From the NCBI GenBank assembly GCA_024233865.1, contig JACKPA010000012.1, positions 128,001 through 192,000 on the forward strand: a stretch of 64,000 bases of DNA, read 5' to 3'. Source of the DNA: Leptospiraceae bacterium (lineage in GTDB: Bacteria; Spirochaetota; Leptospiria; Leptospirales; Leptospiraceae). Position numbers and translations under genes: made by a program. This document shows, piece after piece, positions 1 through 49,282 of the stretch. The first letter of the stretch is position 1, and every line of letters starts with the position of its first letter. The notes beneath the pieces are model-generated. The model had not been told where the DNA came from. It did no database searches and saw nothing but the letters and a program-made list of their open reading frames with translations.

Positions 1-2168
1 TTGCGAATGTCACTTAGTTCGTTTTCTATCTTTTTTAAAGTATTTCCGATAAGTAATCCTTCCGGTTTTTCCAAATGAACAAGTGTATTTGCTGCTACAA
101 AGTTTGTTTCCAAGTTTGGTAAAGGAACAATTCCATAGTTGTCTTTTTTGTCTTTATTTGCTTTTTGATCTATAATCAAAGAAATGAAAAATCGAAGTTT
201 GGAAATCTCAATGGCTATAGGCTGAATATCAACTCCATAAATACAGTTTTTGATTAAAAAGAGCTTTCTTCCATAGTCTTGGTAGTTGTTCTTTTCATTA
301 AAGGCTTCTTCAATTTCTTTTTTAACGTGTTTACGAATATTCACATCCGGAATTTTCTCTGCTTGATTCAATTGCAATCTTTTCCATTCTTCGTTTTTTG
401 GATCGAGTTTGTGAAGAACATAAACAAGCTTATGCAAAATTCCCATAGGAAAAGCACCGGATCCACAAGCAGGGTCTAAAATCTTAATTTTGTGTATGGC
501 TTGGATCAGATTTTGAGCTTCTTCTACTGTGAAAAAATGCTCTTCCGTTGAATGAGAAAGTAAATGACGAAGTTTGGAAACCCCACCCAAACCCTCCCCA
601 GAGGGGCAGGGGGTGAGGTATTCTTTAAAGTAAGCAATCAAACTTTCATCTACCATATAATTCACAATTTCTCGTGGAGTATAAAACGAACCAGTTTGTT
701 TGCGGGCTGTCGTTTTCGTTTCAGGGTTATAAGAAGCCAACAAATTTTCAAAAACCTTGCCTAATAATTCAGGATCAAGAGCGATCTCTTCTTCGAGTGG
801 TGTATTTTCGGTAACGGTGAATTTGTATTGTTTCAAGATACGAATGATTCCTTTCACCTTTTCTTTTTTATGCTTCGTGTCTCCGTATATTTTACTGAAA
901 TCTATTTCCCTCTCTTTACCAAAAAATAAGTCATCCGGAATATTAATTTGTTTTTGGGTTTTTGGATGATCGCTAAAACAATCTATACGAACTTCATTAG
1001 AGCCTTTTCCGGTTTCATCTTTACGTTTATCTAAACATTCAAACAAACCTCCGTTTAAAAAAGGTATTTCCCTAAAAATATTTAGTACGCTTTCGGAATC
1101 TTTGAATTCTTTCTCGTATCTGTATAGGCTATGTACCATATAATCTTTGTCTTTTACCTCAATTCCATTCGTAACACGAAACCTTCTTTCCAAATCCATT
1201 TCAGTATTTAAAGTAGCAAAAAATAGATTTTGTAAAATGGCTTTGTAATAAACAGTGGATGATCCTTCTTTTTCCATAAAATGGTTTAATGTCTTTTTCA
1301 AGAATTCTTCCCTAAACAAATCTTCCGATATAAATTCTCTACCACCTTCCAAACGCTTTTCTTTCAGAAACCAAACAAAAATAAGCCTTGTTAGCATACG
1401 AATTACGCTTAGTGAATTCCGAATGTCTCTATTTTCATGTACATCTTTTGGAAATTCTGCAATATCAATTGCCCAAAAATACCAATTCGATATGTCTTTG
1501 TAAAATCTCTTGTTTAACTCTTTGGTATCTAATACTTTCTGCCAAGCATTGTGAAAATCAACAAAGTTACTCAAACTGTATTTGGCTTTAATACAATCCA
1601 AAGATAAATCATACAGAATTTCAATGTGTCCTCTGTGTGGATTTTCAACTTGAATGTCTTTGATCAAAGTCACTTTTTCCAAAACGTCTTTGCTCACGTC
1701 TAGCTTGTTTGGTCTCCTATCAATAATTGCCAGAGTCAACACACTTCCATAACGAAAGAGTATCATAACCGGAGCCATAAAGAGTTTGTTTACGGCTCTT
1801 GTAATTTGAGATAACTTTGTTTTGGAATAAATATCTCCCTTCAATTGAATACCTATAAATATATAGGACTCATACTCATTGGGATTGTATTTTTTGTTTT
1901 CAAAAAGGGAATGACTTTCCAAAACTTCATCTTTGGTATATTGAAAGAGAATATTTGCTTCTTTCCACTCTCCAAAACAGGCTTTTTCTTCCGGAATATT
2001 CCTTTCTCTGAATAGTTCTTTAAAATCATTTTTTGTATAGTCTGATGTTTTATCGCTTTTGTAACCAAGAGTCTCAAAAAAACTCACCCCCAACCCCTCT
2101 CCAAAGGAGAGGGGAGAAGCGAGGAATTGTTTGATTTGTTCTTTTTTTTCTGTTTCAGTTGTTTTCAT
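1..2168 (-). CDS. Type IIG restriction-modification enzyme, copy 1 (N-terminal nuclease region plus N6-adenine methyltransferase domain). 5' partial-in-window: the start codon is at 2168 and the reading frame stays open to position 1, so the gene continues beyond the window
   Basis: Minus-strand translation from the ATG at 2166-2168 is uninterrupted to the window edge. It contains GSFYTPREIVNYMV (methyltransferase motif X) and ILDPACGSGAFP (motif I). It is the colinear in-frame version of the fragmented ORFs at 5225-7628. It is missing from the ORF track, probably because it has no in-window stop. Confidence 0.7.
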   Translation of the reverse strand, partial: MKTTETEKKEQIKQFLASPLSFGEGLGVSFFETLGYKSDKTSDYTKNDFKELFRERNIPEEKACFGEWKEANILFQYTKDEVLESHSLFENKKYNPNEYESYIFIGIQLKGDIYSKTKLSQITRAVNKLFMAPVMILFRYGSVLTLAIIDRRPNKLDVSKDVLEKVTLIKDIQVENPHRGHIEILYDLSLDCIKAKYSLSNFVDFHNAWQKVLDTKELNKRFYKDISNWYFWAIDIAEFPKDVHENRDIRNSLSVIRMLTRLIFVWFLKEKRLEGGREFISEDLFREEFLKKTLNHFMEKEGSSTVYYKAILQNLFFATLNTEMDLERRFRVTNGIEVKDKDYMVHSLYRYEKEFKDSESVLNIFREIPFLNGGLFECLDKRKDETGKGSNEVRIDCFSDHPKTQKQINIPDDLFFGKEREIDFSKIYGDTKHKKEKVKGIIRILKQYKFTVTENTPLEEEIALDPELLGKVFENLLASYNPETKTTARKQTGSFYTPREIVNYMVDESLIAYFKEYLTPCPSGEGLGGVSKLRHLLSHSTEEHFFTVEEAQNLIQAIHKIKILDPACGSGAFPMGILHKLVYVLHKLDPKNEEWKRLQLNQAEKIPDVNIRKHVKKEIEEAFNEKNNYQDYGRKLFLIKNCIYGVDIQPIAIEISKLRFFISLIIDQKANKDKKDNYGIVPLPNLETNFVAANTLVHLEKPEGLLIGNTLKKIENELSDIR

Positions 2169-2190
2169 ATTTATTTAAATGTCTTATTCT

Positions 2191-2511
2191 CTATGTCTCG
2201 ATAAAAATTTCTTCAGGCACCTGAGCTTGTAGAAATGGCCATATAAGTAGCCGAGCATAAGTTTTAGTGAAAGTAATGATTCTTTTCTCTTGTAACCATC
2301 TTTCATATTGCTCGTTATCCCACAAAACAGAATCCAATAAATGCCTTAATTTGTCTTTTCGGTTCAATTCCTTATTAGAGGAACCAATGATTGAATTTTC
2401 TTCAATAACCAGAATAACGTTATGGATACCTGGACGAAAAGAGAACGAATTTATTTTTAATATAACTGTTCCATCTTCTTGAATTTTAGCTGTTGTCTCT
2501 ATACTTTTCAT
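2191..2511 (-). CDS. hypothetical protein (106 aa)
   Basis: Single ORF. Its 3' end and downstream sequence (gayrtagagaataagacatttaa) are shared with the target-recognition-domain remnant at 3170-3180. Confidence 0.35.
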   Translation of the reverse strand: MKSIETTAKIQEDGTVILKINSFSFRPGIHNVILVIEENSIIGSSNKELNRKDKLRHLLDSVLWDNEQYERWLQEKRIITFTKTYARLLIWPFLQAQVPEEIFIET

Positions 2512-2567
2512 TGTTTACTCCTTAGCATTTACTCTATTTTAATTTCCCTTTTTCTATTTTGGAAATG

Positions 2568-2855
2568 TCAGCCAACAACTCCCTGAACCTGTCGAAGGAC
2601 TTTCTGCTCTTTTTTATTGAGTATTTCTTTATACAATACAACTGGATCCAAATCTACCTTATTGGGCCAACAAACAGTTCCTAATTCTTGATTTACTCTT
2701 ACTAGCTTAAAATAGTTCCATTCTTTTAATGGCTCAAAAACGCCTTCATAAGTGATCATTTTTTCTAAATTGATTACTCCAGTAATACCGTTTTCAAACT
2801 TCAAGTAAAGTAATGATTTTTTTCTTGGTTTTACATATACTATATCTACTAACAT
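2568..2855 (-). CDS. DUF2442-family protein
   Basis: The sequence ...LVDIVYVKPRKK...LKFENGITGVINL... is typical of the DUF2442 partner of DUF4160. The ATG at 2855 lies just downstream of the DUF4160 stop. The longer tracked ORF (to 2948) overlaps the upstream gene. Confidence 0.55.
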   Translation of the reverse strand: MLVDIVYVKPRKKSLLYLKFENGITGVINLEKMITYEGVFEPLKEWNYFKLVRVNQELGTVCWPNKVDLDPVVLYKEILNKKEQKVLRQVQGVVG

Positions 2856-2857
2856 TA

Positions 2858-3118
2858 TTACACCAACGGTTCTATATATTTTAACTCTTTCTTTTGTTTT
2901 GCAAATTCCCAATCTTCTTTTAACTCGTCTTGATGCAAAGATGCCCATTCAACAACAAGCCCTCTTACTCTAGAAGGTAGTTCACCTTCTAGAATTGTCA
3001 ATGTCTCAATAGATACCATAGCTTTATAATTTCCATATCTAACATGAAAATGTGGTGGGTTATGGTCGTTATGAAACATCGCGATAATTATACCTAAAAA
3101 CCTTGATATTTCTGGCAC
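2858..3118 (-). CDS. DUF4160-family protein
   Basis: MFHNDHNPPHFHVRYG is the hallmark of DUF4160. It sits in the classic gene pair with DUF2442. Confidence 0.65.
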   Translation of the reverse strand: MPEISRFLGIIIAMFHNDHNPPHFHVRYGNYKAMVSIETLTILEGELPSRVRGLVVEWASLHQDELKEDWEFAKQKKELKYIEPLV

Positions 3119-3169
3119 TATGATTTTTCTCCTTTTATTCTATCTTAAATGTCTTATTCTCTACATCTT

Positions 3170-3300
3170 GATAATAATTATGGATTGTCGTTTTTTCTAC
3201 AATGCTCATCCTTGGAAAGCTGTCCAATACTGTTAGCATCTCTTCTTCTGTAAGTACATACAGTTGGAAAACTATTGCGTCGATTTTTGGATAACAAATC
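3170..3300 (-). pseudogene. Remnant of the 3' end of a type IIG target-recognition domain
   Basis: About 120 nt match 4015-4135 closely (DAMVFHLYGLTEEEMLTVLDSFPRMSIVEKTTIHNYY...). There is no upstream ORF continuation. Confidence 0.5.
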
Positions 3301-3301
3301 A

Positions 3302-3721
3302 TCATAGGTATTTTATAAATATATTGTTTAATGCCATTCTTTTTTTAGTTCGATAAATATAATAATCAGAATCAATTGTAATGATATTCGTAATTCCATA
3401 AATTTCTGAAATTACAATTAAAGAACCATCTGCAATATCCATTGGTAAATCTTCGTATTTTTTTGCTAATTCGATTAACCTGTTATAATAGTCTTGTTTA
3501 AATTCTAGTATGTTTAGACCACCATCTAGTATAAAACTCATTAAATTAATTTGAGCCTTAGTCGATTTTCTTAATAGATGTCCAACTTCCGTAATTACAA
3601 AATTTGTAGTAAATAATTCACCACTGAAATTTTTTAGAAAATCTATGATATTTTCATGATACTTATCGCTAGCATCAAATAATGCATATAATGGTCCGGA
3701 ATCAATGAGAGTTCTTTTCAT
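3302..3721 (-). CDS. vapC: PIN-domain toxin (VapC-like)
   Basis: The MKRTLIDSGPLYALFD start, acidic PIN residues and 139-aa size fit VapC. The gene is 20-nt overlapped by an upstream small gene. Confidence 0.7.
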   Translation of the reverse strand: MKRTLIDSGPLYALFDASDKYHENIIDFLKNFSGELFTTNFVITEVGHLLRKSTKAQINLMSFILDGGLNILEFKQDYYNRLIELAKKYEDLPMDIADGSLIVISEIYGITNIITIDSDYYIYRTKKRMALNNIFIKYL

Positions 3722-3971
3722 ATAATATGTTCTCTAAGATTAGTTTTCTTTTTTGAGAAATGTCTTTTTTTCCACTTGAATAGACTCCAAAATATTTTTT
3801 TCCTATTTCATAAGGAGTTTTCTTATTCTTTTGATAGTAAGAATCAATATACCCTTTTAATACTATTTTAATAAGTTCTGATTCTGAAATATTTTCCTCT
3901 TTTGAAATTTTGAACAACCCTTCTTCAATTTCTTGAGTTAGATTTATGGTTAGTGCTTTTTGTCTGCTCAT
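3702..3971 (-). CDS. vapB: Ribbon-helix-helix antitoxin (VapB/CopG-like)
   Basis: The 89-aa protein has an N-terminal LTINLTQEIEEGL...SESELIKIVL ribbon-helix-helix pattern and lies immediately upstream of the PIN gene. Confidence 0.55.
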   Translation of the reverse strand: MSRQKALTINLTQEIEEGLFKISKEENISESELIKIVLKGYIDSYYQKNKKTPYEIGKKYFGVYSSGKKDISQKRKLILENILYEKNSH

Positions 3972-3976
3972 TTCAT

Positions 3977-6900
3977 TTATCCTACCTTAAAAGTTTTGTT
4001 TTGTATGCCTCGATAATAATTATGGATTGTCGTTTTTTCTACGATGCTCATTCTCGGAAAACTGTCCAAGACTGTTAGCATCTCTTCTTCTGTAAGTCCA
4101 TACAGATGGAACACCATTGCATCGATCTGTGCTTCCCATTTGGAGACCTCACCCCCGTCCCCTCTCCAATCTGGAGAGGGGGTTTGCTTTGCAACAAGTA
4201 TCTTGTCTACGAGTGCGATCAGGGGTTTTTGTAATCCTGGATTGTCGATTGGTGCTTTGGGAATTGGAAGTTTGTTTACATAATATTTATCAAAGTCCAT
4301 TGTTCGAATAGCACGACAAAAAACAAACCAGTAATAATACCAAGATGCAAATTTTGAATTTAAGATACCAAGGATATATTCTTCTTTAACACCTTTATTT
4401 GTAATAAATGTATTCATTACCGTATCCAATGTTAAAACTCCAATTTTTTATCTAAGCTTGCCATTATAATAATACTATCTTGTACGTGAGCAACTATTCT
4501 TTGAGAAATAATTTTAGTCTTTCTTTTTCTTAGTTCATCAACTTTGGAAATTAAGTCTGCTTTTGGTAATTTTTATCTTATCAATTTCACCATGAATATC
4601 ATATCTACCAATGTTTTTTCCTCGTAAAATATCTTCACCTTTGGTTGTTAATTTGCTTTGGTAAGGCAATCCTCTGCAAGTATTGGAGATTTCACCCAAA
4701 GGAATAAAGCAGTTTTTTAATTTTTTAATATGTTCAAAGATTTGGAATTAACGTAAATCGGTATTATATCATAAGCATTTATAAACTTATTATCTATTTG
4801 TTCATTATGAACTTTAATGGATTCATTCCAATAATCTCCAACGGTCATTTTATAAGATGCTTGTTTATCTTTGATTGTAACTATTATAACTTGTTCCAAA
4901 AGAACATTTTCAAACGCTTTGGTTGTATCAATTACAATACTGAGAACATTATCCTCTGCAATTAGATTACGAGTGTTTTTCCATCCTTCTGAAAATGCTA
5001 TAGACTTTGGAATAATATAACTCAAAATCCCTTTCCGTTTTAATGTTACCAAGCCAAATTCCATAAAAAAGGAAGCAGAATCTTTTTTTGTCTATCATAG
5101 AATTTATAAGATTTTTCGATATTTTTAAGATATTCTTTTAAATCAGCTCCATACGGCGGATTTCCTATCACAACATCAAAGCCACCTTTCCCCAGCCCCC
5201 CGTGAACGGGGGGAGTTACTTGCGTTAGTTACTCCCCAGCTCGGGGGAAGGGGGGGAAATCCCAAACATGTGTTCAGGGTCGAACCAATCCGCAGATTTG
5301 AGTCTATCATAAGGATTCCATTCGGCAATTTTGCTAGCTGAATCTTTAGAAAACTGATTTTTTAGAAGAAATTCAGAAATTTCTTTTGCGTTTCTCTTTA
5401 TCTTTCTCTCGCAGTTCTTTTTTTTCTCTTTATAAGTCCTTGCATCAAAGTGTTGTTTGCGAATGTCACTTAGTTGATTTTCCAACTTCTTTTTTAAAGT
5501 ATCACCAATTAACAAACCTTCCGGTTTTTCCAAATGAACAAGTGTATTTGCTGCTACAAAGTTTGTTTCCAAGTTTGGTAAAGGAACAATTCCATAGTTG
5601 TCTTTTTTGTCTTTATTTGCTTTTTGATCTATAATCAAAGAAATGAAAAATCGAAGTTTGGAAATCTCAATGGCTATAGGCTGAATATCAACTCCATAAA
5701 TACAGTTCTTGATTAAAAATAGCTTTCTACCATAATCTTGGTAGTTGTTCTTTTCATTAAAAGCTTCTTCAATTTCTTTTTTAACGTGTTTACGAATACT
5801 CACATCAGGAATTTTCTCTGCCTGATTCAATTGCAATCTTTTCCATTCTTCATTTTTTGGATCAAGTTTATGAAGAACATAAACAAGCTTATGCAAAATT
5901 CCCATAGGAAAAGCTCCAGATCCACAAGCAGGATCGAGTATCTTGATTTTGTGTATAGCTTGGATCAGATTTTGAACTTCTTCTACTGTGAAAAAATGCT
6001 CTTCCGCTGAATGAGAAAGTAAATGACGAAGTTTGGAAACCCCACCCAAACCCCTCCCAGAGGGGCAGGGGTGAGGTATTCTTTAAAGTAAGCAATCAAA
6101 CTTTCATCTACCATATAATTCACAATTTCTCGTGGAGTATAAAACGAACCAGTTTGTTTGCGGGCTGTCGTTTTCGTTTCAGGGTTATAAGAAGCCAACA
6201 AATTTTCAAAAACCTTGCCTAATAATTCAGGATCAAGAGCGATCTCTTCTTCGAGTGGTGTATTTTCTGTAACGGTGAATTTGTATTGTTTCAAGATACG
6301 AATGATTCCTTTCACCTTTTTTTTTTTATGCTTCGTGTCTCCGTATATTTTACTGAAATCTATTTCCCTCTCTTTACCAAAAAATAAGTCATCCGGAATA
6401 TTAATTTGTTTTTGGGTTTTGGATGATCGCTAAAACAATCTATACGAACTTCATTAGAGCCTTTTCCGGTTTCATCTTTACGTTTATCTAAACATTCAAA
6501 CAAACCTCCGTTTAAAAAAGGTATTTCCCTAAAAATATTTAGTACGCTTTCGGAATCTTTGAATTTTTCTCGTATCTGTATAGGCTATGTACCATATAAT
6601 CTTTGTCTTTTACCTCAATTCCATTCGTAACACGAAACCTTCTTTCCAAATCCATTTCAGTATTTAAAGTAGCAAAAATAGATTTTGTAAAATGGCTTTG
6701 TAATAAACAGTGGATGATCCTTCTTTTTTCCATAAAATGGTTTTAATGTCTTTTTCAAAATTCTTCCCTAAACAAATCTTCCGATATAAATTCTCTACCA
6801 CCTTCCAAACGCTTTTTTTCTTTCAGAAACCAAACAAAATAAGCCTTGTTAGCATACGAATTACGCTTAGTGAATTCTGAATGTCTCTATTTTCATGTAC

Positions 6901-7628
6901 ATCTTTTTGAAATTCTGCAATATCAATTGCCCAAAAATACCAATTCGATATGTCTTTGTAAAATCTCTTGTTTAACTCTCTTTGGTATCTAATACTTTCT
7001 GCCAAGCATTGTGAAAATCAACAAAGTTACTCAAACTGTATTTGGCTTTAATACAATCCAAAGATAAATCATACAGAATTTCAATGTGTCCTCTGTGTGG
7101 ATTTTCAACTTGAATGTCTTTGATCAAAGTCACTTTTTCCAAAACGTCTTTGCTCACGTCTAGCTTGTTTGGTCTCCTATCAATAATTGCCAGAGTCAAC
7201 ACACTTCCATAACGAAAGAGTATCATAACCGGAGCCATAAAGAGTTTGTTTACGGCTCTTGTAATTTGAGATAACTTTGTTTTGGAATAAATATCTCCCT
7301 TCAATTGAATACCTATAAATATATAGGACTCATACTCATTGGGATTGTATTTCTTGTTTTCAAAAAGGGAATGACTTTCCAAAACTTCATCTTTGGTATA
7401 TTGAAAGAGAATATTTGCTTCTTTCCACTCTCCAAAACAGGCTTTTTCTTCCGGAATATTCTTTTCTCTGAATAGTTCTTTAAAATCATTTTTTGTATAA
7501 TCGGGTGTTTTATCGCTTTTGTAACCAAGAGTCTCAAAAAACCTCACCCCCAACCCCTCTCCAAAGGAGAGGGGAGAAGCGAGGAATTGTTTGATTTGCT
7601 CTTTTTTTTCTGTTTCAGTTGTTTTCAT
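3977..7628 (-). pseudogene. Type IIG restriction-modification enzyme, copy 2, disrupted by multiple frameshifts. Fragments: 6972-7628 nuclease N-terminus; 6823-7005, 6539-6733, 5983-6315, 5225-6049 methyltransferase motifs X and I; 5100-5225 NPPY motif IV; 4717-5064; 3977-4429 TaqI_C-like target-recognition domain
   Basis: The fragments are colinear, on one strand and in shifting frames. Together they reconstruct one ~1200-aa protein: GSFYTPREI, DPACGSGAF, GNPPYGADLKEY, IIPKSIAFSEGW, GILNSKFASWYY. Frame breaks coincide with homopolymer or GC-hairpin tracts (e.g. T11 at ~6320, A8 at ~5085, G7 at ~5250). 5457-7628 is about 97% identical to 1-2168. Confidence 0.7.
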
Positions 7629-7878
7629 GTTTTTGTCTCAAAATCAATTTGCATTCTTGTGGCAAATTGTTATACAGTAAATTTAAATTATGTGTTTTGG
7701 AAAATGGGATATTTTGATAGATAAAAATTGACTTAATTGCTTTCTCGGTTGACTGTTGGCAGAGATAACATACATTTCTTGGGAATCGCTCCACCGTTTC
7801 GGAAAGTGCAATTGCACTATTCAAGTCTTCTTCGGCGTATTTAAGCCATGTTTTCCATTCCGGTATATTCTCGTTCAT
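7615..7878 (-). CDS. HEPN-domain protein (toxin-like partner of the nucleotidyltransferase)
   Basis: 87 aa with a ...STEKAIKS...KTHNLNLL... HEPN-like pattern. It overlaps the upstream nucleotidyltransferase gene by 38 nt. Confidence 0.55.
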   Translation of the reverse strand: MNENIPEWKTWLKYAEEDLNSAIALSETVERFPRNVCYLCQQSTEKAIKSIFIYQNIPFSKTHNLNLLYNNLPQECKLILRQKHENN

Positions 7879-8209
7879 ATATTAATTTACCCTCCTTTAA
7901 AGCATGATAATATATAGACCATTTCTTTTGTTTATATTTAGATTCTTCGTCTTGACTGATAACCAAAATATCAGTTGCTATAGGAAAGTTTTCTAATAAC
8001 TTCCGAATCTGAATAGCTAATTTCCTCCTATGCTCAACTTCTTTAAATTCTATTAGAATATCTAAATCACTATTTTCATTTTCCGTACCTTTGGCATAAG
8101 AGCCAAATATAAAGATTTTTTCCGGTTTGAATGTTGGAATGATTCTTTTTATTGTTTCATCCTTAAGATAACTGAATTCATATCTTGTTGTTTTGTTTTC
8201 TGCGATCAT
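7841..8209 (-). CDS. Minimal nucleotidyltransferase (MNT) domain protein
   Basis: IFIFGSYAKGTENENSDLDILIEF is the canonical GS...DxD nucleotidyltransferase motif. Confidence 0.7.
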   Translation of the reverse strand: MIAENKTTRYEFSYLKDETIKRIIPTFKPEKIFIFGSYAKGTENENSDLDILIEFKEVEHRRKLAIQIRKLLENFPIATDILVISQDEESKYKQKKWSIYYHALKEGKLIYEREYTGMENMA

Positions 8210-8249
8210 AGCATTCTCCTTTATTAATTATACCATACTTTTATCAAAA

Positions 8250-11200
8250 TCATTTTATAATCAACCAGGTTACAAGCTCAAAATCGTCTACATCTTTTAT
8301 TTGTTCCTTCTTAGATGGAAGGACAGAGTGCCTGCTTGTTGTTAGGGCTAACAGATTCTTTTTCTGAAAGACTCCTACCGTTTCTTCAATGGACTTCACA
8401 AGTAACTTATTGTAAAAATCCATATTTTTTCCGTTATCGGTTTCTTTATTAAATTGGTTACAAAGTTTTTCAATTGGAGATGTGATCCCAACACACAAAG
8501 CTCTATAGATGTCTAAAATCTGCTTGGCATGAGTAAACTTGTAACGAACATCTCCATTTTCTTGAACATAAACAAGATAAAACGGTTGTAAGGGATTCAC
8601 AGATTCAGAACTTGCAGTTCCTACTTTATGCCTTAAGCAAAATATAACTCCAGGAGATACAGTCTTATTTTGTTTATTTTCTATCTCAACTTCTTTTGGG
8701 ACAAGAGAATACAAACCAAAAGGAGTTTCCCTAAGCATTTTTTCATTGGATTGCAAATAGTTTAGTAAATCCACTCGAAAGTCATCCAAAGTAAACTCAC
8801 TAAAAGAAACGTTATCAGTCAAATCATCCAAATCCAGAATTTCTTTTTGTAGCCTCTTTAGCTGTTCATCTCTATAACTCAATTCATCACTTACCATATT
8901 TTCAATTTCTTCGACATTTAAAATATTTTCCTCATTTGTAGCAGTAATGTCTACCAATGCCATTCTAGCTTCCACTCTATGCTTTAACTTGATGTAATTG
9001 TCCAAATCTTCTGTGGGCCAGAAATTAACCAGGTGAACCGAATTATTTTTACTACCTAAACGATCAATCCTACCAAACCTTTGGATAATACGAACAGGAT
9101 TCCAATGAATATCATAATTTATCAGGTAATCACAGTCTTGGAGGTTTTGTCCTTCAGAAATACAATCTGTTGCAAATAGTACATCAATTTCTTCTATAGG
9201 CATTTTATCCAGTTTTTCACGATGTTTTGAAATGGGCGAAAAATTGATTAAAATTTCTTCATATCTAGAACTACCTAAAGTTGTTTTGTTTACACCACTC
9301 CCCAAAACCAAAGCCGTATGAACACCCAACTCTTTGTAAATATGATCTTTCAATTGCTCATAAATGTATATAGCCGTATCAGCATAAGCAGTAAATACTA
9401 AAACTTTTTTATTCGGCTTTCCATCATTATTTTTATTAGGATTTTTTATTTTTTCTGTTATCAAATCTTTCAATTTATGAAGTTTGGCATCTCTAATGGG
9501 AGTAATAGCTTCTGCCTGGTTATACAGAGAAACCAATTGCTCCCTGTCTTTTTCCAAATCTTGAAGCCATTCGTCTACTTTTAAGTCATCCAATTTATAC
9601 ACCAGTTTTTCTCCAATTTCAAATGCTTGTTTCAAATCTTCGTCTTCCATTTCTTCATTGGTTACTATTTCATCTGTTGCATAGCTTGTATTTTTATTAT
9701 CTCTAAATTTCTGATATTCTCTTATTTTATCTTCCAAGGTATCTATCTTTTTAATTGTTCTGTCCAGAGTGATTTTAAAAGAAAAAATAGAACTTTCTAT
9801 TCGTTTCATAAAGTTGGTTTTCATCATTCCTATCAAAAAATATTCCCTTTGACTTTGTGAAAAATTTTTCACCATTCTGGAAACCTTCGTCTCATAGAGC
9901 TGAATTTTCTCTTCTTTTAGATAAGCAAAAGGGTTAAACAAACTCAGTTTATACTTTGTAATTTCTTCATTTACTTTATCATAAGATACAAAGCGATTAT
10001 TCATATCAATCCTAGTTGTAACGGATATAGGTTTGGCTCTTTTTGGGAATTTACCAATTATTTCTAAACTTTCTTTATAATACCTTTCGATATGCTTTCT
10101 TGACCTTGCTATTGTTAATTGGTCTAGCATCTTAAAAAATGAGGATGGTAGTTTTTCCAAAAGTTCTAATGTTCTCCTTTCGGCATTTTTTTTGTGGTCT
10201 GCCCACATAGTAAAGACTTTTTGAGAAGTTATTAAAGTTTGGTTTATGCTTTGGATTCCAATTGTAAATAGATAAGCAGAATCATCTCCCGCAGTTATAA
10301 AGTAAATTTGATTTCTTAAATCTTGCAAGTGAACATTCACAGGAGTAGCAGACAAAAGTAATACCTTTGTTTTCCTTCCTTTTTGAATCACATCTTCCAT
10401 TAATTTTTCATAACGGCTTTTTTTGATTACATTTCCTTCTTCGTCTTTTTTTCCTTTGGTATTATTCCTAAAATTATGCGATTCGTCAATTACTACCAAA
10501 TCAAAGTTTTCCCAATTCAATGTCCTTAAATCAATATCTCCTTGCTTTCCGGAATCTCTGCCAAGATCGGTATGATTCAAAACCATATAACCAAATTTGT
10601 CTTCCAAAAAAGGATTCAATATAGAATTGTTAGCTGCCTGGTAAACTGTCCAATTGTCCCGTAGCTTTTTAGGACAAAGAACAAGAACACGATCATTTCT
10701 TAATTCGTAGTATTTTATAATTGCCAAGGCTTCAAAAGTTTTTCCCAAACCTACGCTATCGGCGATAATGCAACCGTTGTATTGTTCTATTTTATTAATG
10801 GCTGATTTTACACCATCCTTTTGGAATTCGTATAAGGATTTCCATATAAGAGAATCAAAGAAGTGGCTTTTTTCTTCTAATAACTCTAACTTACTTTTGT
10901 CTTGTAAGTATTTCTGAAAGATGTGATATAGAGTTTTGTAATAAATAAACTCAGGAGAATAATCCAAATACAGTTGCTTAAGATATTCAATTACTTCTTC
11001 TTTTACGTCCTCCACTTCCTCACTATTCCAAAGCTCATTAAACCAGCTAAGCAAATCCAATGTATCACGCTTGGAATCTATAATCAGATTAAGTTCAATA
11101 TTAGGATTAGAGCCAAATCCAATACCTCTATTTGTAAAATTGGAGCTACCCATTATAGCATGGGATAACCCACTTGGTTCATGAATATGATATAGTTTCC

Positions 11201-11582
11201 CATGCAGAAAATTACTTTTTTTAACGGATTTGATTTCTACTTTTTTAGCTATCCATTCCTCACAATCTCTTGCTATTTTACTTTGCTCTAGACGGTTGGA
11301 AAGAGATAAACCATGGTCTTCAATATCAAAAGATTTTTTATCAGTTTTGTCTGGGTCTAATGATTTGGTAAACCTGGGTTCTCCAAACAAAAATCTCAAT
11401 TCGGAAATGCTCTCAAGTCTATCTTTCAATTGATAATAGGCGTAAATTGTAAAAAAGGCGGAAACGAAAGATAATTTGGATTCTTCTACAATCGTTTTTT
11501 CTAAGAATTCCCCTACACTTCCATTTTTTCGATTATCCCTTATGTTAGAAAAACTGATATTTTGCTGGTTAAATTTTTGCAA
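8250..11582 (-). CDS. Phospholipase-D-family nuclease fused to an SNF2-family ATPase/helicase (1110 aa); putative defense protein
   Basis: The N-terminus HGKLYHIHEPSGLSHAIMGSSNFTNRG is an HxK...GSxN PLD motif. The SNF2 N-domain carries CIIADSVGLGKTFEALAII (Walker A) and DLVVIDESHNFRN (DEAH-like). Helicase_C carries LVFTAYADTA...FATDCISEGQNLQDCDYLINYDIHWNPVRIIQRFGRIDRLGS (motifs IV-VI). Confidence 0.8.
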   Translation of the reverse strand: MQKFNQQNISFSNIRDNRKNGSVGEFLEKTIVEESKLSFVSAFFTIYAYYQLKDRLESISELRFLFGEPRFTKSLDPDKTDKKSFDIEDHGLSLSNRLEQSKIARDCEEWIAKKVEIKSVKKSNFLHGKLYHIHEPSGLSHAIMGSSNFTNRGIGFGSNPNIELNLIIDSKRDTLDLLSWFNELWNSEEVEDVKEEVIEYLKQLYLDYSPEFIYYKTLYHIFQKYLQDKSKLELLEEKSHFFDSLIWKSLYEFQKDGVKSAINKIEQYNGCIIADSVGLGKTFEALAIIKYYELRNDRVLVLCPKKLRDNWTVYQAANNSILNPFLEDKFGYMVLNHTDLGRDSGKQGDIDLRTLNWENFDLVVIDESHNFRNNTKGKKDEEGNVIKKSRYEKLMEDVIQKGRKTKVLLLSATPVNVHLQDLRNQIYFITAGDDSAYLFTIGIQSINQTLITSQKVFTMWADHKKNAERRTLELLEKLPSSFFKMLDQLTIARSRKHIERYYKESLEIIGKFPKRAKPISVTTRIDMNNRFVSYDKVNEEITKYKLSLFNPFAYLKEEKIQLYETKVSRMVKNFSQSQREYFLIGMMKTNFMKRIESSIFSFKITLDRTIKKIDTLEDKIREYQKFRDNKNTSYATDEIVTNEEMEDEDLKQAFEIGEKLVYKLDDLKVDEWLQDLEKDREQLVSLYNQAEAITPIRDAKLHKLKDLITEKIKNPNKNNDGKPNKKVLVFTAYADTAIYIYEQLKDHIYKELGVHTALVLGSGVNKTTLGSSRYEEILINFSPISKHREKLDKMPIEEIDVLFATDCISEGQNLQDCDYLINYDIHWNPVRIIQRFGRIDRLGSKNNSVHLVNFWPTEDLDNYIKLKHRVEARMALVDITATNEENILNVEEIENMVSDELSYRDEQLKRLQKEILDLDDLTDNVSFSEFTLDDFRVDLLNYLQSNEKMLRETPFGLYSLVPKEVEIENKQNKTVSPGVIFCLRHKVGTASSESVNPLQPFYLVYVQENGDVRYKFTHAKQILDIYRALCVGITSPIEKLCNQFNKETDNGKNMDFYNKLLVKSIEETVGVFQKKNLLALTTSRHSVLPSKKEQIKDVDDFELVTWLIIK

Positions 11583-11669
11583 ACTAAGATCCTGTAAAAG
11601 TAGTATATATATATCTTTTTCGGGTTATTATTAAAGAAATATTAGTATTTTACACATTTCCGAAAAACA

Positions 11670-12329
11670 TCAAAATCTATACAATTCATCAGGAAATCCG
11701 GTAGAATCAAAGCATTTACTTTCCAGTAGGTTAAAAGAAACAACCGTAAAATGTGGTTTTAAGGCTTCCATATAGAAATGTAAAGGTCTTTGGTAGGCGT
11801 ACGGGTCGTTAAACCCAAGTTCTTTTTTCATGCGATCATAGTCCTTGTCGGTTGGAACTGAAAAATACAAATACTTTGTAATTCGAGAAAGTTTTTGAAA
11901 CATATTTTCTATATCTCTTCCTATGTATTGAAATACGGAATTACATATGGTGAAATCCAGTGGATTTTGTTCTATATTCAAAATAGTAAAGTCTTGGATT
12001 GAGGAGTGTATTATAGAAATATCCAAGCCACTAATCCACCTCGATTTGCTGAGTTTGTCTACCATTTCCCAGGAAGGCTCTATGGCATACACCTTATCCG
12101 GTTTTAGCAATTTCACAAAGTCTTCTAAAAGGTTTGCTTTTCCAAAACCAAAATCTGCCATAGAATACACCTCTATCTCACAAAGCGTAAATAGGGAAGC
12201 AATATAACGGGCGTGGTCTTTGGAATTATATGTTCCGTCAATGTCTATTTCATCTCGATAAACGGTTTTCCAGTATTTTTTATCAAAGGCAAGACCATTG
12301 GCAGCTGATGTAAGAACGGAATGTTTCAC
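11670..12329 (-). CDS. Class I SAM-dependent methyltransferase
   Basis: MADFGFGKANLL fits a glycine-rich SAM-binding motif I. The 4-nt overlap (ATGA) with the upstream membrane-protein gene suggests translational coupling. Confidence 0.55.
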   Translation of the reverse strand: MKHSVLTSAANGLAFDKKYWKTVYRDEIDIDGTYNSKDHARYIASLFTLCEIEVYSMADFGFGKANLLEDFVKLLKPDKVYAIEPSWEMVDKLSKSRWISGLDISIIHSSIQDFTILNIEQNPLDFTICNSVFQYIGRDIENMFQKLSRITKYLYFSVPTDKDYDRMKKELGFNDPYAYQRPLHFYMEALKPHFTVVSFNLLESKCFDSTGFPDELYRF

Positions 12330-13651
12330 ACTTCGTTTACAACAATAGATAGGGATATAATATCGGTCATAATTTTTTTCATTTTATCATAAGGTGTTGG
12401 CTGATAAAAGTCCTGAATGGATTTTAAAAGGTCTTCTTTTACAGCAGAATATTTGTCGCTATTGTAGATTCTTTGCATAAATTCTTTATTTACTAGTACG
12501 CTATTGGTATCTAATGAGATAAACAAGGTGTCTTTTGTTTTGAATCCTTTGTTGATCGAACTGGCTGTTTCTTGATTTAAGCCATTTACAATCAAAAAGT
12601 CATCTTTTTGCATTTCGGATATGTGGTTGAATTCAATCTTTTCTCCATAAAAAAAGTATACAATATCGCTAAAAGTTGCTGAGCCATAAACCTTTTGTTC
12701 AGGTTTCATAACTTTGGTTCGTAAGGAGGTGAGTAACCTGCCTTGTTGTATCATCTTTTCCGTATTCAAAGAACCTTTGTGGTTGTATGAAAAATAAACG
12801 GAAATTCCGATTAATACAATCACAACAAAAAGGGACTTGCGGTTTGTTAATTCTTTCTCCTTTTCCAGTAGAATATGCGTAAAAAGAATCAACAAAAAAA
12901 TCGGAACAAACTGAATTAAAATATTTCTTACCTTAATAAATAAAAATTGAAACGAATTGCTTCCAAAAAATTCAAAAGAACCTAGTACTACAATTAATGA
13001 GACCATAAAACCACCATAAGCCAATAAGACAGTTAAAGGAATGTTTTTCTTTTTATAAAATACTGTTATTCTGGTTTGTCTCATTTCTTTGATGCAATAT
13101 ACTGTGATGTAAACGGAAAATACGACTAAAAACATAACAAAATTCGACAAGAAGCCTAAGATGGTCAGTATACTCATTACAATCAAATCTATAAACGTTT
13201 CCAATCTGGAATAGATATAAAGAACTTGAATTATAATAAGACATAACAATTCACCGCTATATTGAAAGGGAAGGTTTACAGATAAAGGTGAAAATGCGAT
13301 TAAGTATAATAAAAAATAGTGATTTAGCTTCCAGATTTCCTTACGGAAAATTAACATACACAAATGTAAAAATACACTGTATAAAATAGAAAGATAGATT
13401 TTATAGGCTAAAAGATAATTCAAACCCGTTATATTTTTCCAATAATATGTAGTAATTGCCGGTAGAGGCTCTCCGTACCTTCGAGCTTGTCCTTCTTCCA
13501 TAATGGATTTTAAATTGGCGAGGTCAAAATACGCATTTGCGTGTCTTGGCTCTCCACGAAAATTGTATAAAGTACTCAAAACTACGCATAAAAACAATAT
13601 GGAAAGAATAATATTCAAAGGACTAACGGGTTGGCTTTTTTTATATATCAT
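12326..13651 (-). CDS. Polytopic integral membrane protein (~10 predicted TM helices), function unknown
   Basis: 441 aa dominated by hydrophobic helices, in an operon with the methyltransferase. Confidence 0.45.
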   Translation of the reverse strand: MIYKKSQPVSPLNIILSILFLCVVLSTLYNFRGEPRHANAYFDLANLKSIMEEGQARRYGEPLPAITTYYWKNITGLNYLLAYKIYLSILYSVFLHLCMLIFRKEIWKLNHYFLLYLIAFSPLSVNLPFQYSGELLCLIIIQVLYIYSRLETFIDLIVMSILTILGFLSNFVMFLVVFSVYITVYCIKEMRQTRITVFYKKKNIPLTVLLAYGGFMVSLIVVLGSFEFFGSNSFQFLFIKVRNILIQFVPIFLLILFTHILLEKEKELTNRKSLFVVIVLIGISVYFSYNHKGSLNTEKMIQQGRLLTSLRTKVMKPEQKVYGSATFSDIVYFFYGEKIEFNHISEMQKDDFLIVNGLNQETASSINKGFKTKDTLFISLDTNSVLVNKEFMQRIYNSDKYSAVKEDLLKSIQDFYQPTPYDKMKKIMTDIISLSIVVNEV

Positions 13652-29205: not shown

Positions 29206-30252
29206 ATGAAAACACTAAAAACCAGAGGGCATATATTCTCAGATTCCAATCAACAATTGGAAGACTATAGGTTCATTTTTAAAAAAAATGACTTGCCCGC
29301 TTTCCAAGAGAAAATGAAAGAGATTGGACTTTATCCTTTCAAACCTACCCAAATTGAAATTCTTCAAATCAATTTAGGGAAAATGTGTAACCAAACTTGT
29401 AAACATTGTCATGTTGATGCCGGACCTGAAAGAAAAGAAATTATGACTCACAAAACAATGGAAGTTTGCTTAGAAATTTTAAAAAATCATGACATTGGAA
29501 TTGTTGACCTTACCGGTGGTGCTCCGGAGTTAAATCCAGATTTTAGATGGTTTGTGGAAGAAATCAAAAAGCTAAACCGCCATATAATTGTTAGGTGCAA
29601 TTTAACAATTCTGCTTGCCGGAGAAAAATTCCAAAGTTTACCGGAGTTTTATGCTCTACACAAAGTTGAAATTGTTTCCTCCCTGCCATTTTACACCACA
29701 TTAAAAACCGATAGCCAAAGGGGTGAAGGGGTTTTTGATAAGTCCATAATCGCTCTCAAAAAGCTCAACCAAATTGGATATGGAATAGAAGGTTCAGGCT
29801 TGACATTAAACTTGGTTTATAATCCTTCTGGAGCTTTTTTACCAGGTAACCAACAGTCCTTAGAAGCAGATTTTAAAAGAAATCTACAAAACAAATATGG
29901 GATCGTTTTTAATAACCTGTTCACTATAACCAATATGCCAATTAGTAGGTTTTTGGACTATTTGCATACAAGTGGGAATTATGAAGACTATATGGAAAAG
30001 TTAGTTACTTCTTTTAATCCTAGTGCTGCCCAGAACGTAATGTGTAGGAACATGATTTCCGTTAGTTGGGATGGATTTTTATACGACTGCGATTTCAACC
30101 AGATGCTAGATTTAAAAATTGCTTCCGAGTCCAACCATATTATTGATTTTAATATGGAAATCCTTAAAAACCGAGAAATCGTTTTAAACCAACATTGTTA
30201 CGGATGTACGGCTGGTGGAGGTTCCAGCTGCGGAGGTGCCATTACAAAATAG
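29206..30252 (+). CDS. arsS: Radical SAM / Cys-rich-domain protein (arsenosugar-biosynthesis ArsS-type)
   Basis: CNQTCKHCHV (Cx3Cx2C-type cluster with inserted residues) and C-terminal CYGCTAGGGSSCGGA Cys-rich tail; paired with an AhpD-like gene. Confidence 0.65.
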   Translation: MKTLKTRGHIFSDSNQQLEDYRFIFKKNDLPAFQEKMKEIGLYPFKPTQIEILQINLGKMCNQTCKHCHVDAGPERKEIMTHKTMEVCLEILKNHDIGIVDLTGGAPELNPDFRWFVEEIKKLNRHIIVRCNLTILLAGEKFQSLPEFYALHKVEIVSSLPFYTTLKTDSQRGEGVFDKSIIALKKLNQIGYGIEGSGLTLNLVYNPSGAFLPGNQQSLEADFKRNLQNKYGIVFNNLFTITNMPISRFLDYLHTSGNYEDYMEKLVTSFNPSAAQNVMCRNMISVSWDGFLYDCDFNQMLDLKIASESNHIIDFNMEILKNREIVLNQHCYGCTAGGGSSCGGAITK

Positions 30253-36923: not shown

Positions 36924-37564
36924 TGGCTTTTAGTAATTATAAAACCGTAGATGCTGTGCTTAAAGAGTTTCAAATTACCTATACCGAATCAAATTTTGTT
37001 ATAGAAACAGACTTTTCTATTTCGGACTATTTTCGAGAAGATTTGGAATTTATCAGAGAAGAAGGAGCACCCGAATGTTCGGAATATGCTATTTGTGAAA
37101 ACTTGATTTACCCACTATTAAAAGAAGTTTGGAAAAAATACTATAGTAAGTTTATGTTATGGAGCCACAAGTCACTCAATTATGATGAAAAATTATCAGG
37201 TTTTCCGGAGTATATTCTATCTAAACGTTCTCTGCTAGGAAAAATAGTCTTTGATCAGCCTTATTTTATGTTGGTAGAAGCAAAGCAAGATAATTTTGAA
37301 GTAGGGTGGGCACAATGTTTAGTTGAAATGTTTGCTGCCCAGAAATTAAATGAAAATCCGGATCAGGAGATATTTGGGATTACTTCCAATGGCTCTGTTT
37401 GGCAATTTGGAAAGTTAAAAGGTAGTCTTTTTACTAAAAATAAGAAATATTACTTACTAGATGATCTGAACAAGCTTTTGGGAGCGATTAATTATATATT
37501 TTTTCAGTGTGAAGTATTACTAGGTGGGGAAGAGAGGAGTGAACCTGAAAATGCTATGTGCTAG
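36924..37564 (+). CDS. HsdR-N-like PD-(D/E)xK protein, paralog 2
   Basis: GFPEYILSK...FMLVEAKQDNFEVGWAQCLVEMFAAQ...GITSNGSVWQF. Confidence 0.5.
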
Positions 37565-37580
37565 AATATTTAGGAGAATA

Positions 37581-38084
37581 ATGAAATTTATATTGATACC
37601 TGTATTATTGTTTTTATCATGTATAGGCATAGGATTTAAGGAGACCACGCCAGAACAACAACTTTTTCAAGCTACATCAGATGGTAATATAAAAAAAGCG
37701 AAACAACTTATATCAGAAGGAGCAAATATAAATGAGAGTCGAGCATTAATAGTTGCTTCATACAGAGGAAGAACAGAACTTGTCAACTTATTAATCAGTT
37801 ATGGAGCAGATGTAAATGTTAAATCTGATGTTTATGAGACTACGCCACTGTTTGCTGCGTCAGAACATGGTGGTAGAACAGATATTATGAAAATATTAAT
37901 CCAAGCTGGAGCTGACCCAAATTTCAAAGATCAATATGGACGAACACCTCTGTATTTTGCTTATAGGAGGAAAAATGCTGAAGAAATTAGAATATTAAAA
38001 CAAGCAGGTGCTAAAGAGCTTAATCTGAAGCAAACAAGAGATCAATGTAAATATTGTATTGGTTGCATGTGTCCTGTTGAATAA
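37581..38084 (+). CDS. Ankyrin-repeat lipoprotein
   Basis: LLFLSCIGI lipobox-like signal; three or four ankyrin repeats; RBS aggag upstream. Confidence 0.65.
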   Translation: MKFILIPVLLFLSCIGIGFKETTPEQQLFQATSDGNIKKAKQLISEGANINESRALIVASYRGRTELVNLLISYGADVNVKSDVYETTPLFAASEHGGRTDIMKILIQAGADPNFKDQYGRTPLYFAYRRKNAEEIRILKQAGAKELNLKQTRDQCKYCIGCMCPVE

Positions 38085-38191
38085 TTATCTCCGAACATAG
38101 TCGAATTGAATTTTAATGTTAAAAATCAATTGTGTTATGATGTATTGAAAAGGAGTAACAAGAAAATGCTTAATCTAGCAATCAAAAAATC

Positions 38192-38488
38192 ATGTATAAG
38201 TATACAACTGTTAGGGGTAATGAAAGTCAAATTAATATTATGAGAAATGATAGAATATACCAATCCATATTAAACCATTTAAGCCTAGTTCCGATTGATT
38301 ATTTACAAGAAGTAGATATTTATTTACGAAATCTTATTAAAATTCTTAAGAGGAAAGAACATAATAGGAAGATGATTTTGGAATTGGCAGGTTCTTGGAA
38401 TGATATGCAAGAAAAGGATTTTAATGAATTTTTATTTATTACTAAAAAAATAGGTAATGAGATGTTTAATCGAGATATAGAACTATGA
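38192..38488 (+). CDS. Putative antitoxin partner of the downstream PIN toxin
   Basis: Small ORF whose stop overlaps the PIN gene start (ATGA); no diagnostic motif. Confidence 0.35.
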   Translation: MYKYTTVRGNESQINIMRNDRIYQSILNHLSLVPIDYLQEVDIYLRNLIKILKRKEHNRKMILELAGSWNDMQEKDFNEFLFITKKIGNEMFNRDIEL

Positions 38489-38886
38489 AACAAGCTCTTA
38501 TAGATACAGACACACTTTCTTACTTTTTCCATAAGAACTCGGCAGTTGTCGAAAAACTAGATAAGTACTTAAAAGAATATGGTTTTATCAATATCAGTGT
38601 TGTTACATACTATGAGGTATTGAACGGTTTATATTTCAAAGATGCTAAAAATCAGTTAGTTAAATTTGAGCAGTTTGTTGAATTAAACGAGATTCTACCT
38701 TTGACGGACGAAATAGCTAAAAAATCAGCAGAAATTTATGCAGATTTGCGTAAGAAAGGGCAGACGATTGGACATAATGATACATTAATTGCAGGAACAG
38801 CCATTGTGAATGATATGACTTTAGTAACAAATAATACTAATCATTTTGGTAGAATAGAAGGCTTAGAAATTGATAATTGGGCATAA
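38485..38886 (+). CDS. vapC: PIN-domain toxin (VapC-like)
   Basis: LIDTDTLSYFF start and the conserved acidic-residue spacing of PIN domains; 133 aa. Confidence 0.7.
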   Translation: MKQALIDTDTLSYFFHKNSAVVEKLDKYLKEYGFINISVVTYYEVLNGLYFKDAKNQLVKFEQFVELNEILPLTDEIAKKSAEIYADLRKKGQTIGHNDTLIAGTAIVNDMTLVTNNTNHFGRIEGLEIDNWA

Positions 38887-38944
38887 CATTCTATTATCAA
38901 TTAGCATTGGTGTATGATTAGAATCAAAACTTTTTGAGAATAGT

Positions 38945-46640: not shown

Positions 46641-47085
46641 GGTTTGATTTTAATGCTATAGGCAAAATTTGATGAAAGTTATCCGATATTAAGCTACAGA
46701 AGACCTCGTTATCGCTCAATCCCTAATTTTTTATAGACTTGTTAGGCAGGAATTGGTTTTCTACCTTCGAGTCTCTTTTTTTGTATTTCTAAAAGATTTT
46801 GTTTAATTAAATTCTTCTTTTAATTCCAATCCTTCGTCAAGGTCAGATAGAAACTCTTCTAATGTTTCCGCTACTGTTTTTAAAAGCTATTCTGAAAGTA
46901 ATTTATAAAAACAAATTCAACAAATTATTATTTCCTTTTTAGGTAACTTTCTACATATTTTGATTAATTGTATTTAAAATAAATTATTTAACAATAAAAT
47001 TCCTTTATGAATATTTAATTAAATCTTGTATTTTTTTATTTTCCTTGCAAGATGGTAATTAGTAAGGTAAATTAGGAGAACTATA

Positions 47086-48015
47086 ATGAAAAAGCTAGGA
47101 CTATTATTTTCAGTTTTAGCGCTGACATTAACGATGTCAGCCACAGGAATTTCGGCAGGAGCATTAAGCGGTCAATGCTACGTTTTGGTCCATGGAATAT
47201 TGGGCTTTGATGATACAAACGGACTTGCAAATGGTCTTGTTAAATATTGGGGTGGATTAGACGGATACCTCAGAGGTCAAGGAGCTAAAGTTGCTACACC
47301 AGGAAGTTCGGCTGCCAATGACTTGGCTACAAGAGCAGGTCAGATTAAGAGCTTTTTGGAAGGAACTTCAAGCAATCCAGGCTGGAGAATTACCAATGGT
47401 TGTGCTAAAGTGCATCTAATTGGTCACTCTCAAGGTGGTCTAGTTTCCCGATATTTGGTAAAAAACCTAAGTTATTCAAGCAAAGTTGCTTCCGTAACTT
47501 CGGTAAATACTCCTCATAAAGGAAGCCCTGTTGCTGATGTTGTTTTGGCTGTGATTCCTAGTTGGTTGCAACCGTTTGTGAATGTTGTTCTTAGCACATT
47601 TGCAACAATAATGTATCGTGATGGTCGTCCGCAAGACGTAGTTGCAATGGGAAAATCGTTAACGGTTTCGTATTGTAACACTTTTAATTCCAGTACACCA
47701 AACGTGTCTGGAATTAGCTATTACTCTTATGGATCAACAATGGCTTGGGCTGACCTAATCCAACATCCACTTATGGGTATTACCTACCCTGCAACATGGG
47801 CAGGTGGATTGGCTTATGGACAAGGTTCTGCAAATGATGGTATTGTTCCTGAATCTTCCCAAAAGTGGGGAACATGGAAAGGTGGACCAAGCACATATTG
47901 GTATGCCACAGGGATAGATCATTTAGAAGCAACCAATTTTGAGTGGTGGGGACAAAACTACTACGATGTTAATGGCTATTACTTAAAAATAGCTAAAAAC
48001 GCTGCAGGTCTGTAG
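47086..48015 (+). CDS. Secreted triacylglycerol lipase (alpha/beta hydrolase, bacterial lipase family I-like), copy A
   Basis: Signal peptide, YVLVHGILGF (oxyanion), IGHSQGG (GxSxG), 309 aa. Confidence 0.7.
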   Translation: MKKLGLLFSVLALTLTMSATGISAGALSGQCYVLVHGILGFDDTNGLANGLVKYWGGLDGYLRGQGAKVATPGSSAANDLATRAGQIKSFLEGTSSNPGWRITNGCAKVHLIGHSQGGLVSRYLVKNLSYSSKVASVTSVNTPHKGSPVADVVLAVIPSWLQPFVNVVLSTFATIMYRDGRPQDVVAMGKSLTVSYCNTFNSSTPNVSGISYYSYGSTMAWADLIQHPLMGITYPATWAGGLAYGQGSANDGIVPESSQKWGTWKGGPSTYWYATGIDHLEATNFEWWGQNYYDVNGYYLKIAKNAAGL

Positions 48016-48037
48016 TAAGGAGTACCCTCCAATTTAT

Positions 48038-48068
48038 TTAACCGGGAGCGAAAACTCCCGGTTTTGAA
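48038..48068 (+). terminator. Rho-independent terminator
   Basis: ccgggag-cgaaaa-ctcccgg hairpin followed by TTTT. Confidence 0.6.
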
Positions 48069-48331
48069 TCTAATTTTGCAAAAGTACGTCTTATGTCCCA
48101 TGGTTTTTTTTAAAAACTTTTAGTTCGAAATTTTAGGATACAAAAAAAGAAAGAAAACAAATTCAACAAATTCTTATTTCCATTTTAGGAAACTTTCGAC
48201 CTATCTTGATTAAGTGTTTTGGAAATAAATTACTTAACAAAAACTTTCCTTATAAATATTTAATTAATTCTTGTATTTTTTTTATTTTTTTAGTCCTATG
48301 GTAATTAGTAAGGTAAATTAGGAGAACTATA

Positions 48332-49261: not shown

Positions 49262-49282
49262 TAGGAGAGTATCCTCCAATTT

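Follow-up and report, generated by a model that had tools for sequence, protein, structure and literature searches.

In a 64,000-nt stretch of DNA from a Leptospiraceae bacterium (GenBank assembly GCA_024233865.1, contig JACKPA010000012.1, positions 128,001 to 192,000 of the forward strand; hereafter the window), a gene for a large Eco57I-family methylase/specificity protein was found to be present twice, as a direct tandem duplication in which the two copies carry different recognition modules. Copy 1 is intact, while copy 2 is interrupted by ~17 frameshifts. These frameshifts show an anomalous indel spectrum and are confined to copy 2, and on balance they are probably uncorrected long-read consensus errors in a hybrid assembly.

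Direct tandem duplication of the methylase gene

Both copies lie on the minus strand. Positions 1-2172 and 5457-7632 of the window were 97.2% identical (2182 columns, 45 mismatches, 16 gap columns), in agreement with the ~97% given in an earlier annotation made from the sequence of the window (the initial annotation). As that annotation also stated, copy 1 (1..2168) is an uninterrupted frame without a stop codon, and runs for 722 codons from its ATG at 2168 to base 1, where the gene runs off the window. The similarity between the copies stops at base 1 solely because the window ends there. The whole copy 1 product (MCP5496776.1, 1293 aa) is intact in the source metagenome-assembled genome (MAG), to which exact look-ups assigned the proteins of the window (locus tags H7A23_197xx, contig of 204,607 bp). 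Copy 2 (3977..7628), with its ATG at 7628 and its stop at 3977, is broken into many short open reading frames (ORFs), from which a product of ~1215 aa could be reconstructed. In the source annotation it appears as seven separate hypothetical proteins (MCP5496782-788).

That the duplication is an assembly artefact, produced when variants of a single-copy gene from two strains were placed end to end, is very unlikely. The island does look heterogeneous between samples, and another MAG contains one scaffolded gene with an N-gap, but both junctions recur in several independent short-read assemblies. The order of methylase 3' end, spacer genes and methylase start is spanned by contigs L001, L002, L003 and L020-L022, and the order of the upstream helicase gene, the MNT/HEPN gene pair and the methylase start by contigs L007-L010. 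These spanning contigs end within the repeat, which matches the behaviour of de Bruijn assembly at true repeats. The unique spacer, flanked by repeat ends, is exactly what makes up the 1968-nt orphan contig L003 of a second MAG (GCA_020440835.1). Furthermore, copy 1 of the second MAG is followed by a 91-aa ORF (L006, 13424-13699) in which ~18 N-terminal residues of the 89-aa regulator encoded in the spacer are fused to the C-terminal part of DUF2442. This ORF is a deleted copy of the spacer tail, and the repeat unit therefore consists of the methylase gene together with its toxin-antitoxin tail, with a period of 5.46 kb. The tandem duplication is thus real.

A remnant of a third methylase copy was also observed in the spacer, between the PIN and DUF4160 genes (3134..3344, minus strand). 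It comprises the last ~50-70 codons of the 3' end (150-210 nt), has a core that is 85-86% identical to 3976-4131, and is present in contigs L001, L002 and L020. It suggests that the array has been through previous rounds of duplication and deletion.

Mosaic structure of copy 2 and its recognition module

Copy 2 (minus strand) is a mosaic in which four blocks differ in their similarity to copy 1. The first block (7632-6067) is ~99.5% identical to copy 1 at the level of substitutions, and the second (6066-5150) is ~94% identical, with differences overwhelmingly at third codon positions. The third block (~5150-4282) contains the catalytic-C/recognition module, which comprises the C-terminal half of the methylase domain and the recognition domain (4282..5150), and has no alignable DNA similarity to copy 1 (a weak protein match of 28%). 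The fourth block (4282-3915) is ~91% identical to the copy-1-type 3' end in L006 of the second MAG and reaches 65 nt beyond the stop codon. The initial annotation had proposed to compare the two target-recognition domains once copy 1 was fully in view, and this comparison demonstrated that the copies carry different modules and that a module swap occurred. Because the modules differ, the two copies should recognise different DNA motifs.

The reconstructed copy-2 module is colinear with intact homologs, the best of which is 71% identical in a MAFFT alignment (69% by BLASTP) and the others ~50%, and 108 of the 115 homolog-invariant residues (94%) are retained. Codon differences between the copies amounted to 27 synonymous versus 12 non-synonymous changes, and to 24 versus 6 in residues 541-717, which correspond to the 94% block; this substitution pattern is one of purifying selection. 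In two other samples (L001, L002), the gene upstream of the spacer contains the copy-1-type module, and the copy-2 module is therefore strain-specific. A protein search with the reconstructed copy-2 module returned nothing over 69% identity, and a metagenome-contig search with the module returned one 46% relative only. Since the best protein match is 69%, the collections searched hold no independent sequence of this allele with which the frameshifts could be checked. When genome contigs were searched with copy 1, no conspecific genome was found, only relatives with 46-54% identity.

In this genome, which has a G+C content of 33%, the methylase genes run in frame through G+C-rich palindromic elements of the type CCCCTCTCC...GGAGAGGGG...GGGGGTGAGG. 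In copy 1 such palindromes are located at 575-628, the equivalent of 6034-6083 in copy 2, and at 2076-2125. Those of copy 2 (minus strand) are located at 4145..4190, near the start of the shared 3' end and with a 10-bp perfect stem; at 5176..5273, just before the NPPY motif and at the boundary to the unrelated block, with two -2 indels; and at 6034..6083, where the identity switches from ~99.5% to ~94%, with one -1 indel. Two of the palindrome sites, ~6060 and 5176-5273, coincide with mosaic boundaries. Palindromes of this kind were found in the methylase genes only, and the one other G+C-rich stretch in the window (30201-30247) is of a different kind. Homologs from other phyla contain similar short insertions in the same loop, ahead of the last conserved helix.

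Frameshifts in copy 2 and their origin

The initial annotation described copy 2 as broken by at least six frame changes, mostly indels in the homopolymer runs T11, A8 and G7. Copy 2 is indeed broken, but comparison with copy 1, the other MAG and homologs identified ~17 frame-breaking indels, lying between 6981 and ~4445, and two in-frame +3 insertions (6817-6819 and 5485-5487). Single nucleotides are lost at 6840, 6759, 6679, 6566, 6421 and ~6070 and gained at 6744, 6729 and ~5386, two nucleotides are gained at 6980 and in the A8 run at 5418-5425 (T8 as shown), and two are lost at ~5243 and ~5193. The +2 in the A8 run is partly compensated by a +1 ~35 nt downstream. Further frame changes are located at ~5085, 4735, 4560 and 4445. 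Most breaks affect short runs (4-8 nt) or the G+C-rich palindromes, and two consist of a single base lost between two runs. The A8 run is thus the site of a break, but the T11 run at 6317-6327 is not: it arose from a C to T substitution and its length is unchanged compared with copy 1. Likewise, the length of the G7 run at 5250-5256 does not differ from that in the intact relative, and the -2 event adjoins the run.

Every disruption of copy 2 is an indel, and no nonsense substitution was found in it. In the near-identical block (6067..6981), 10 indel events were counted versus 5 substitutions. To gauge how paralogs diverge naturally, two tandem genes for 309-aa alpha/beta-hydrolases in the same window (46908-49312, 93.4% identical) served as the internal control, and their noncoding flanks contain 3 indels versus 31 substitutions (Fisher p 7e-5 against 10:5). 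The coding parts of this pair differ by 43 substitutions and no indel. Outside copy 2, no 1-nt indel was observed over ~38 kb of the window when compared with another MAG or with Logan short-read contigs, and none over ~29 kb when compared with the other MAG alone. Three of the Logan contigs (runs SRR12358675/6; 22.8 kb in total, ~17.3 kb non-redundant as two overlap) were 100.000% identical to the window. The first indel, at 6981, falls exactly where the longest exact repeat that the copies share (6978-7352) ends. None of the 17 breaks falls in three clean blocks that make up 46% of the sequence, which gave P ~3e-5 in a test for even spread, where two of the three blocks are delimited by the first and the last indel, so that their limits were partly set after seeing the data. 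The independently defined 94% block alone, in which short reads can be placed uniquely and no breaks were counted in this test, gave P ~0.05 for the absence of indels.

Homopolymer sequencing error had been listed by the initial annotation as a caveat. In the form of a localised consensus error it fits the data better than neutral decay does, and we regard it, with modest confidence, as the origin of the frameshifts. In the frameshifted stretch, short reads would have failed to anchor or cover, which would have left an incompletely polished long-read consensus inside the repeat; hybrid assembly is expected to give the observed pattern in such a case. If so, the cell probably has an intact, or almost intact, copy 2. 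A study of activated sludge that combined nanopore and Illumina sequencing lists a Leptospiraceae MAG with a G+C content of 0.344, which is near that of the window, although this link is circumstantial and unverified (PMC8518188). The organism is also present in the 'WANG18' sludge metagenomes. Literature searches by run, sample and assembly accession gave no hits.

Several observations weigh against an origin by consensus error. Copy 1, which has the same sequence in the shared part, is free of errors, so that an asymmetric history of polishing or bridging is needed. Four of the frameshifts are in the copy-2-specific module, a region in which short reads of the same genome should map uniquely and correct the consensus; for these to be errors, the short-read coverage of the copy-2 allele needs to have been low. 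The toxin-antitoxin spacer adjoining copy 2 is clean, and the 11-nt run at 6317-6327 (T11 above, A11 on the opposite strand) is as long as copy 1 would predict, an unusual outcome for a raw nanopore consensus. The frame is also restored by the +2/+1 pair at 5425-5386, as would be the case for compensation under selection. Moreover, the sequencing technology of the source assembly is inferred and not established.

Alternatively, copy 2 could be a genuine pseudogene that was inactivated after gaining the new module, for example because its specificity was toxic to the unmethylated host, and that has since accumulated many small indels, with copy 1 as the working methylase. This is a possible, though doubtful, explanation. 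The breaks are present in the deposited sequence, where the annotation calls seven fragments, and the rest of the window has a high consensus quality, which gives no prior reason to expect errors. A large number of differences between the copies would also explain why the repeat was resolved here and remained unresolved in four short-read assemblies, and the linkage of the copy-1-type module to the spacer in L001 and L002 marks the copy-2 module as a strain-specific acquisition. The pattern of changes itself is not that of neutral decay: the near-identical block is dominated by indels and the neutral internal control by substitutions, nonsense substitutions are absent, synonymous substitutions are in excess as under purifying selection, the conserved residues are kept, and 1-nt indels are lacking in the compared ~38 kb outside copy 2. 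The clustering of the indels also argues against decay, with the reservation given above on the limits of the clean blocks. Of the suggestion in the initial annotation that copy 2 is a genuinely decaying paralog, or the inactivated donor of a swap, the swap is borne out by the differing modules and the decay is doubtful. ORF fragments derived from the frameshifts (218, 274, 64 and 60 aa) were found in the source MAG only, which is uninformative because short-read assemblies break in the repeat. On a contig of the other MAG, markers switch from copy-2-like to copy-1-like within the 375-nt exact repeat and are followed by an N-gap, and the state of copy 2 there can therefore not be shown.

A further explanation, which we consider improbable, accepts the frameshifts as real and regards copy 2 as a silent archive cassette that feeds its module into the expressed methylase by recombinase-independent gene conversion, with the palindromes at two of the three mosaic boundaries as joints. 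This would amount to a switching of specificity in a helicase-coupled restriction system that resembles pilE/pilS.

Some type IIG genes of this kind, e.g., Cj0031 of C. jejuni, are phase-variable via a poly-G tract. This precedent and the location of most breaks in mononucleotide runs speak for the proposal of the initial annotation that the homopolymer tracts of copy 2 are phase-variable, in which case they would be contingency loci and copy 2 a gene in its OFF state. The proposal was rejected, as ~17 separate breaks would all need reversion, the runs do not exceed 4-8 nt and the frame is not set by one long tract, the only run of at least 9 nt in the gene (T11) is not a break, and a stop codon follows at most 3 codons after the first frameshift.

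Gene family, locus and specificity switching in relatives

When the full copy 1 product was compared with Pfam, matches to Eco57I (E 1.1e-44), N6_Mtase (E 2.5e-11) and TaqI_C (E 3.1e-20) were obtained. The motifs DPACGSGAF and GNPPY are present, in the order of a gamma-class N6-adenine methylase (motif I, then NPPY). In copy 2, the ORF at 3977-4429 matches TaqI_C with E 5e-7, which confirms the target-recognition domain that the initial annotation had placed there. The top PADLOC models for the methylase were REase_MTase_IIG, and the nearest solved relatives by sequence were orphan and type II adenine methylases (CamA-like, M.BseCI and M.TaqI), which match from residue 815 onward only. No endonuclease domain was detected in the methylase, and its first 470 residues gave only a sub-threshold match to DUF4391, a family on which almost no literature was found.

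The assignment to type IIG made by the initial annotation thus holds in part. A methyltransferase domain and a C-terminally fused target-recognition domain are present, and with type IIG/IIL enzymes (Eco57I, MmeI, Cj0031-like) the protein shares the large single chain that joins a gamma-class N6-adenine methylase to a C-terminal TaqI_C domain. It differs from them in that the gene does not stand alone: a gene for a PLD+SNF2 protein is its constant upstream partner, which immediately precedes the methylase in each of six distant relatives (L011-L016, from other phyla; helicase identity 51-56% in four) and also lies upstream of it in the window. Because the nuclease domain was not found in the methylase, 'type IIG' is only partly apt, and a softer label is preferable, namely 'Eco57I-family methylase/specificity protein paired with a PLD+SNF2 helicase-nuclease'. 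From the pairing in the six relatives it follows that the two genes form a conserved two-gene system. The methylase is also related to PglX of BREX and DrmMI of DISARM, and the helicase to DrmD. However, the scores were far under the family cut-offs (90.9 bits versus 500 for NCBIfam BREX_1_MTaseX (PglX) and 176.6 versus 610 for DrmD), and no other Brx or Drm partner genes were present among the neighbours tested, so that membership in either system was rejected.

Fragmented or shortened homologs occur elsewhere. The annotation of a Candidatus Kuenenia MAG likewise splits the homologous methylase into several fragments, all on a single 32-kb contig (E3K37_15570 to 15585), and many N-terminal-only homologs of 500-600 aa were found on long contigs. 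Fragmentation, biological or technical, may be common in this methylase family.

From 13651 to base 1, all features of the window lie on the minus strand. A hypothetical gene (441 aa, 13651-12326) and a small S-adenosylmethionine (SAM) methyltransferase (12329-11670) are followed by the gene for the PLD (HKD) nuclease + SNF2 helicase (8250..11582, 1110 aa; Pfam PLDc_2, SNF2-rel_dom and Helicase_C; PADLOC 'HKD+Snf2' E 1.6e-121) and by a toxin-antitoxin pair (7615..8209) of an MNT nucleotidyltransferase (8209-7841) and a HEPN protein (7878-7615), both assigned by Pfam. It is copy 2 that holds the ancestral place behind the helicase gene, and the MNT/HEPN pair was inserted between these two genes: the helicase-methylase gap is ~40-320 nt in L011-L014, and tblastn with the MNT and HEPN proteins gave no match in L011-L016. 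The spacer downstream of copy 2 contains a second toxin-antitoxin pair (3302..3971), which consists of an 89-aa 'transcriptional regulator' (3971-3702) and a PIN protein (3721-3302; Pfam PIN E 3.6e-9), both named in the source annotation. Beyond the third-copy remnant it contains a DUF4160 (3118-2858) and DUF2442 (2855-2568) pair (2568..3118; Pfam E 3.8e-23 and 7e-11), for which genes are also called in L001 and L021. The spacer closes with a hypothetical 106-aa gene (2191..2511), which is conserved in five other assemblies and has no Pfam, NCBIfam or PADLOC match. A scan for promoters and terminators gave background level only. In an exact-protein look-up, the 126-aa DUF2442 ORF and a 423-aa ORF at 55795 gave no match, probably owing to differing start codons.

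Taken together, the locus is best explained as a helicase-coupled defence island of restriction-modification type, in which a PLD+SNF2 helicase-nuclease gene precedes a large methylase/specificity gene. The methylase gene and its toxin-antitoxin tail have been duplicated in tandem with the 5.46-kb period, and copy 2 has gained its different catalytic-C/recognition module by recombination. Duplication and module swap are both ordinary features of restriction-system evolution.

Some further differences between assemblies were observed. The HEPN ORF (7615-7878) encodes 87 aa in the window and 81 aa in other assemblies, as substitutions at 7629 and 7635 extend it into the start of copy 2. Within the helicase gene, ten substitutions relative to the other MAG are clustered in 58 nt (10110-10167), in a surrounding stretch that is 99.9% identical, and a Logan contig of run SRR12358676 ends exactly at 10168. 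This cluster is probably a recombination patch or a strain polymorphism. A 1.4-kb segment at 37524-38944, encoding an ankyrin-repeat protein and a PIN-domain protein, is absent from the other MAG (L017), where ~10 nt are present instead.

The same two-gene context has been described among the targets of programmed inversion, where specificity varies via the exchange of recognition modules (PMC9881135). The window shares with these systems the combination of helicase and methylase genes and the module exchange, but its copies are direct, full-length and 5.46 kb apart. No inverted repeats of at least 40 nt were found in window positions 1-12000 and no recombinase among the neighbours, so that an invertible recognition-domain shufflon was rejected for the window, which has neither inverted cassettes nor a nearby recombinase. 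In a Planctomycetaceae relative (L014, 10440-13221), an inverted silent TaqI_C cassette (11555-12458) adjoins a serine recombinase gene (12616-13221). Inverted repeats are common to this cassette and to the methylase gene's recognition region, as in a shufflon, and the arrangement resembles an invertible switch of specificity.

Should the frameshifts be errors, they are a useful warning: in a hybrid-assembled MAG that is clean over tens of kb, a repeat can hold many closely spaced indels, from which annotation has here made seven spurious 'hypothetical proteins'. For the organism, an intact copy 2 would mean that one helicase-nuclease is served by two methylase/specificity proteins with different recognition modules. 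Such a two-module arrangement would be a simple doubling of the defence range and would show how modules are exchanged.

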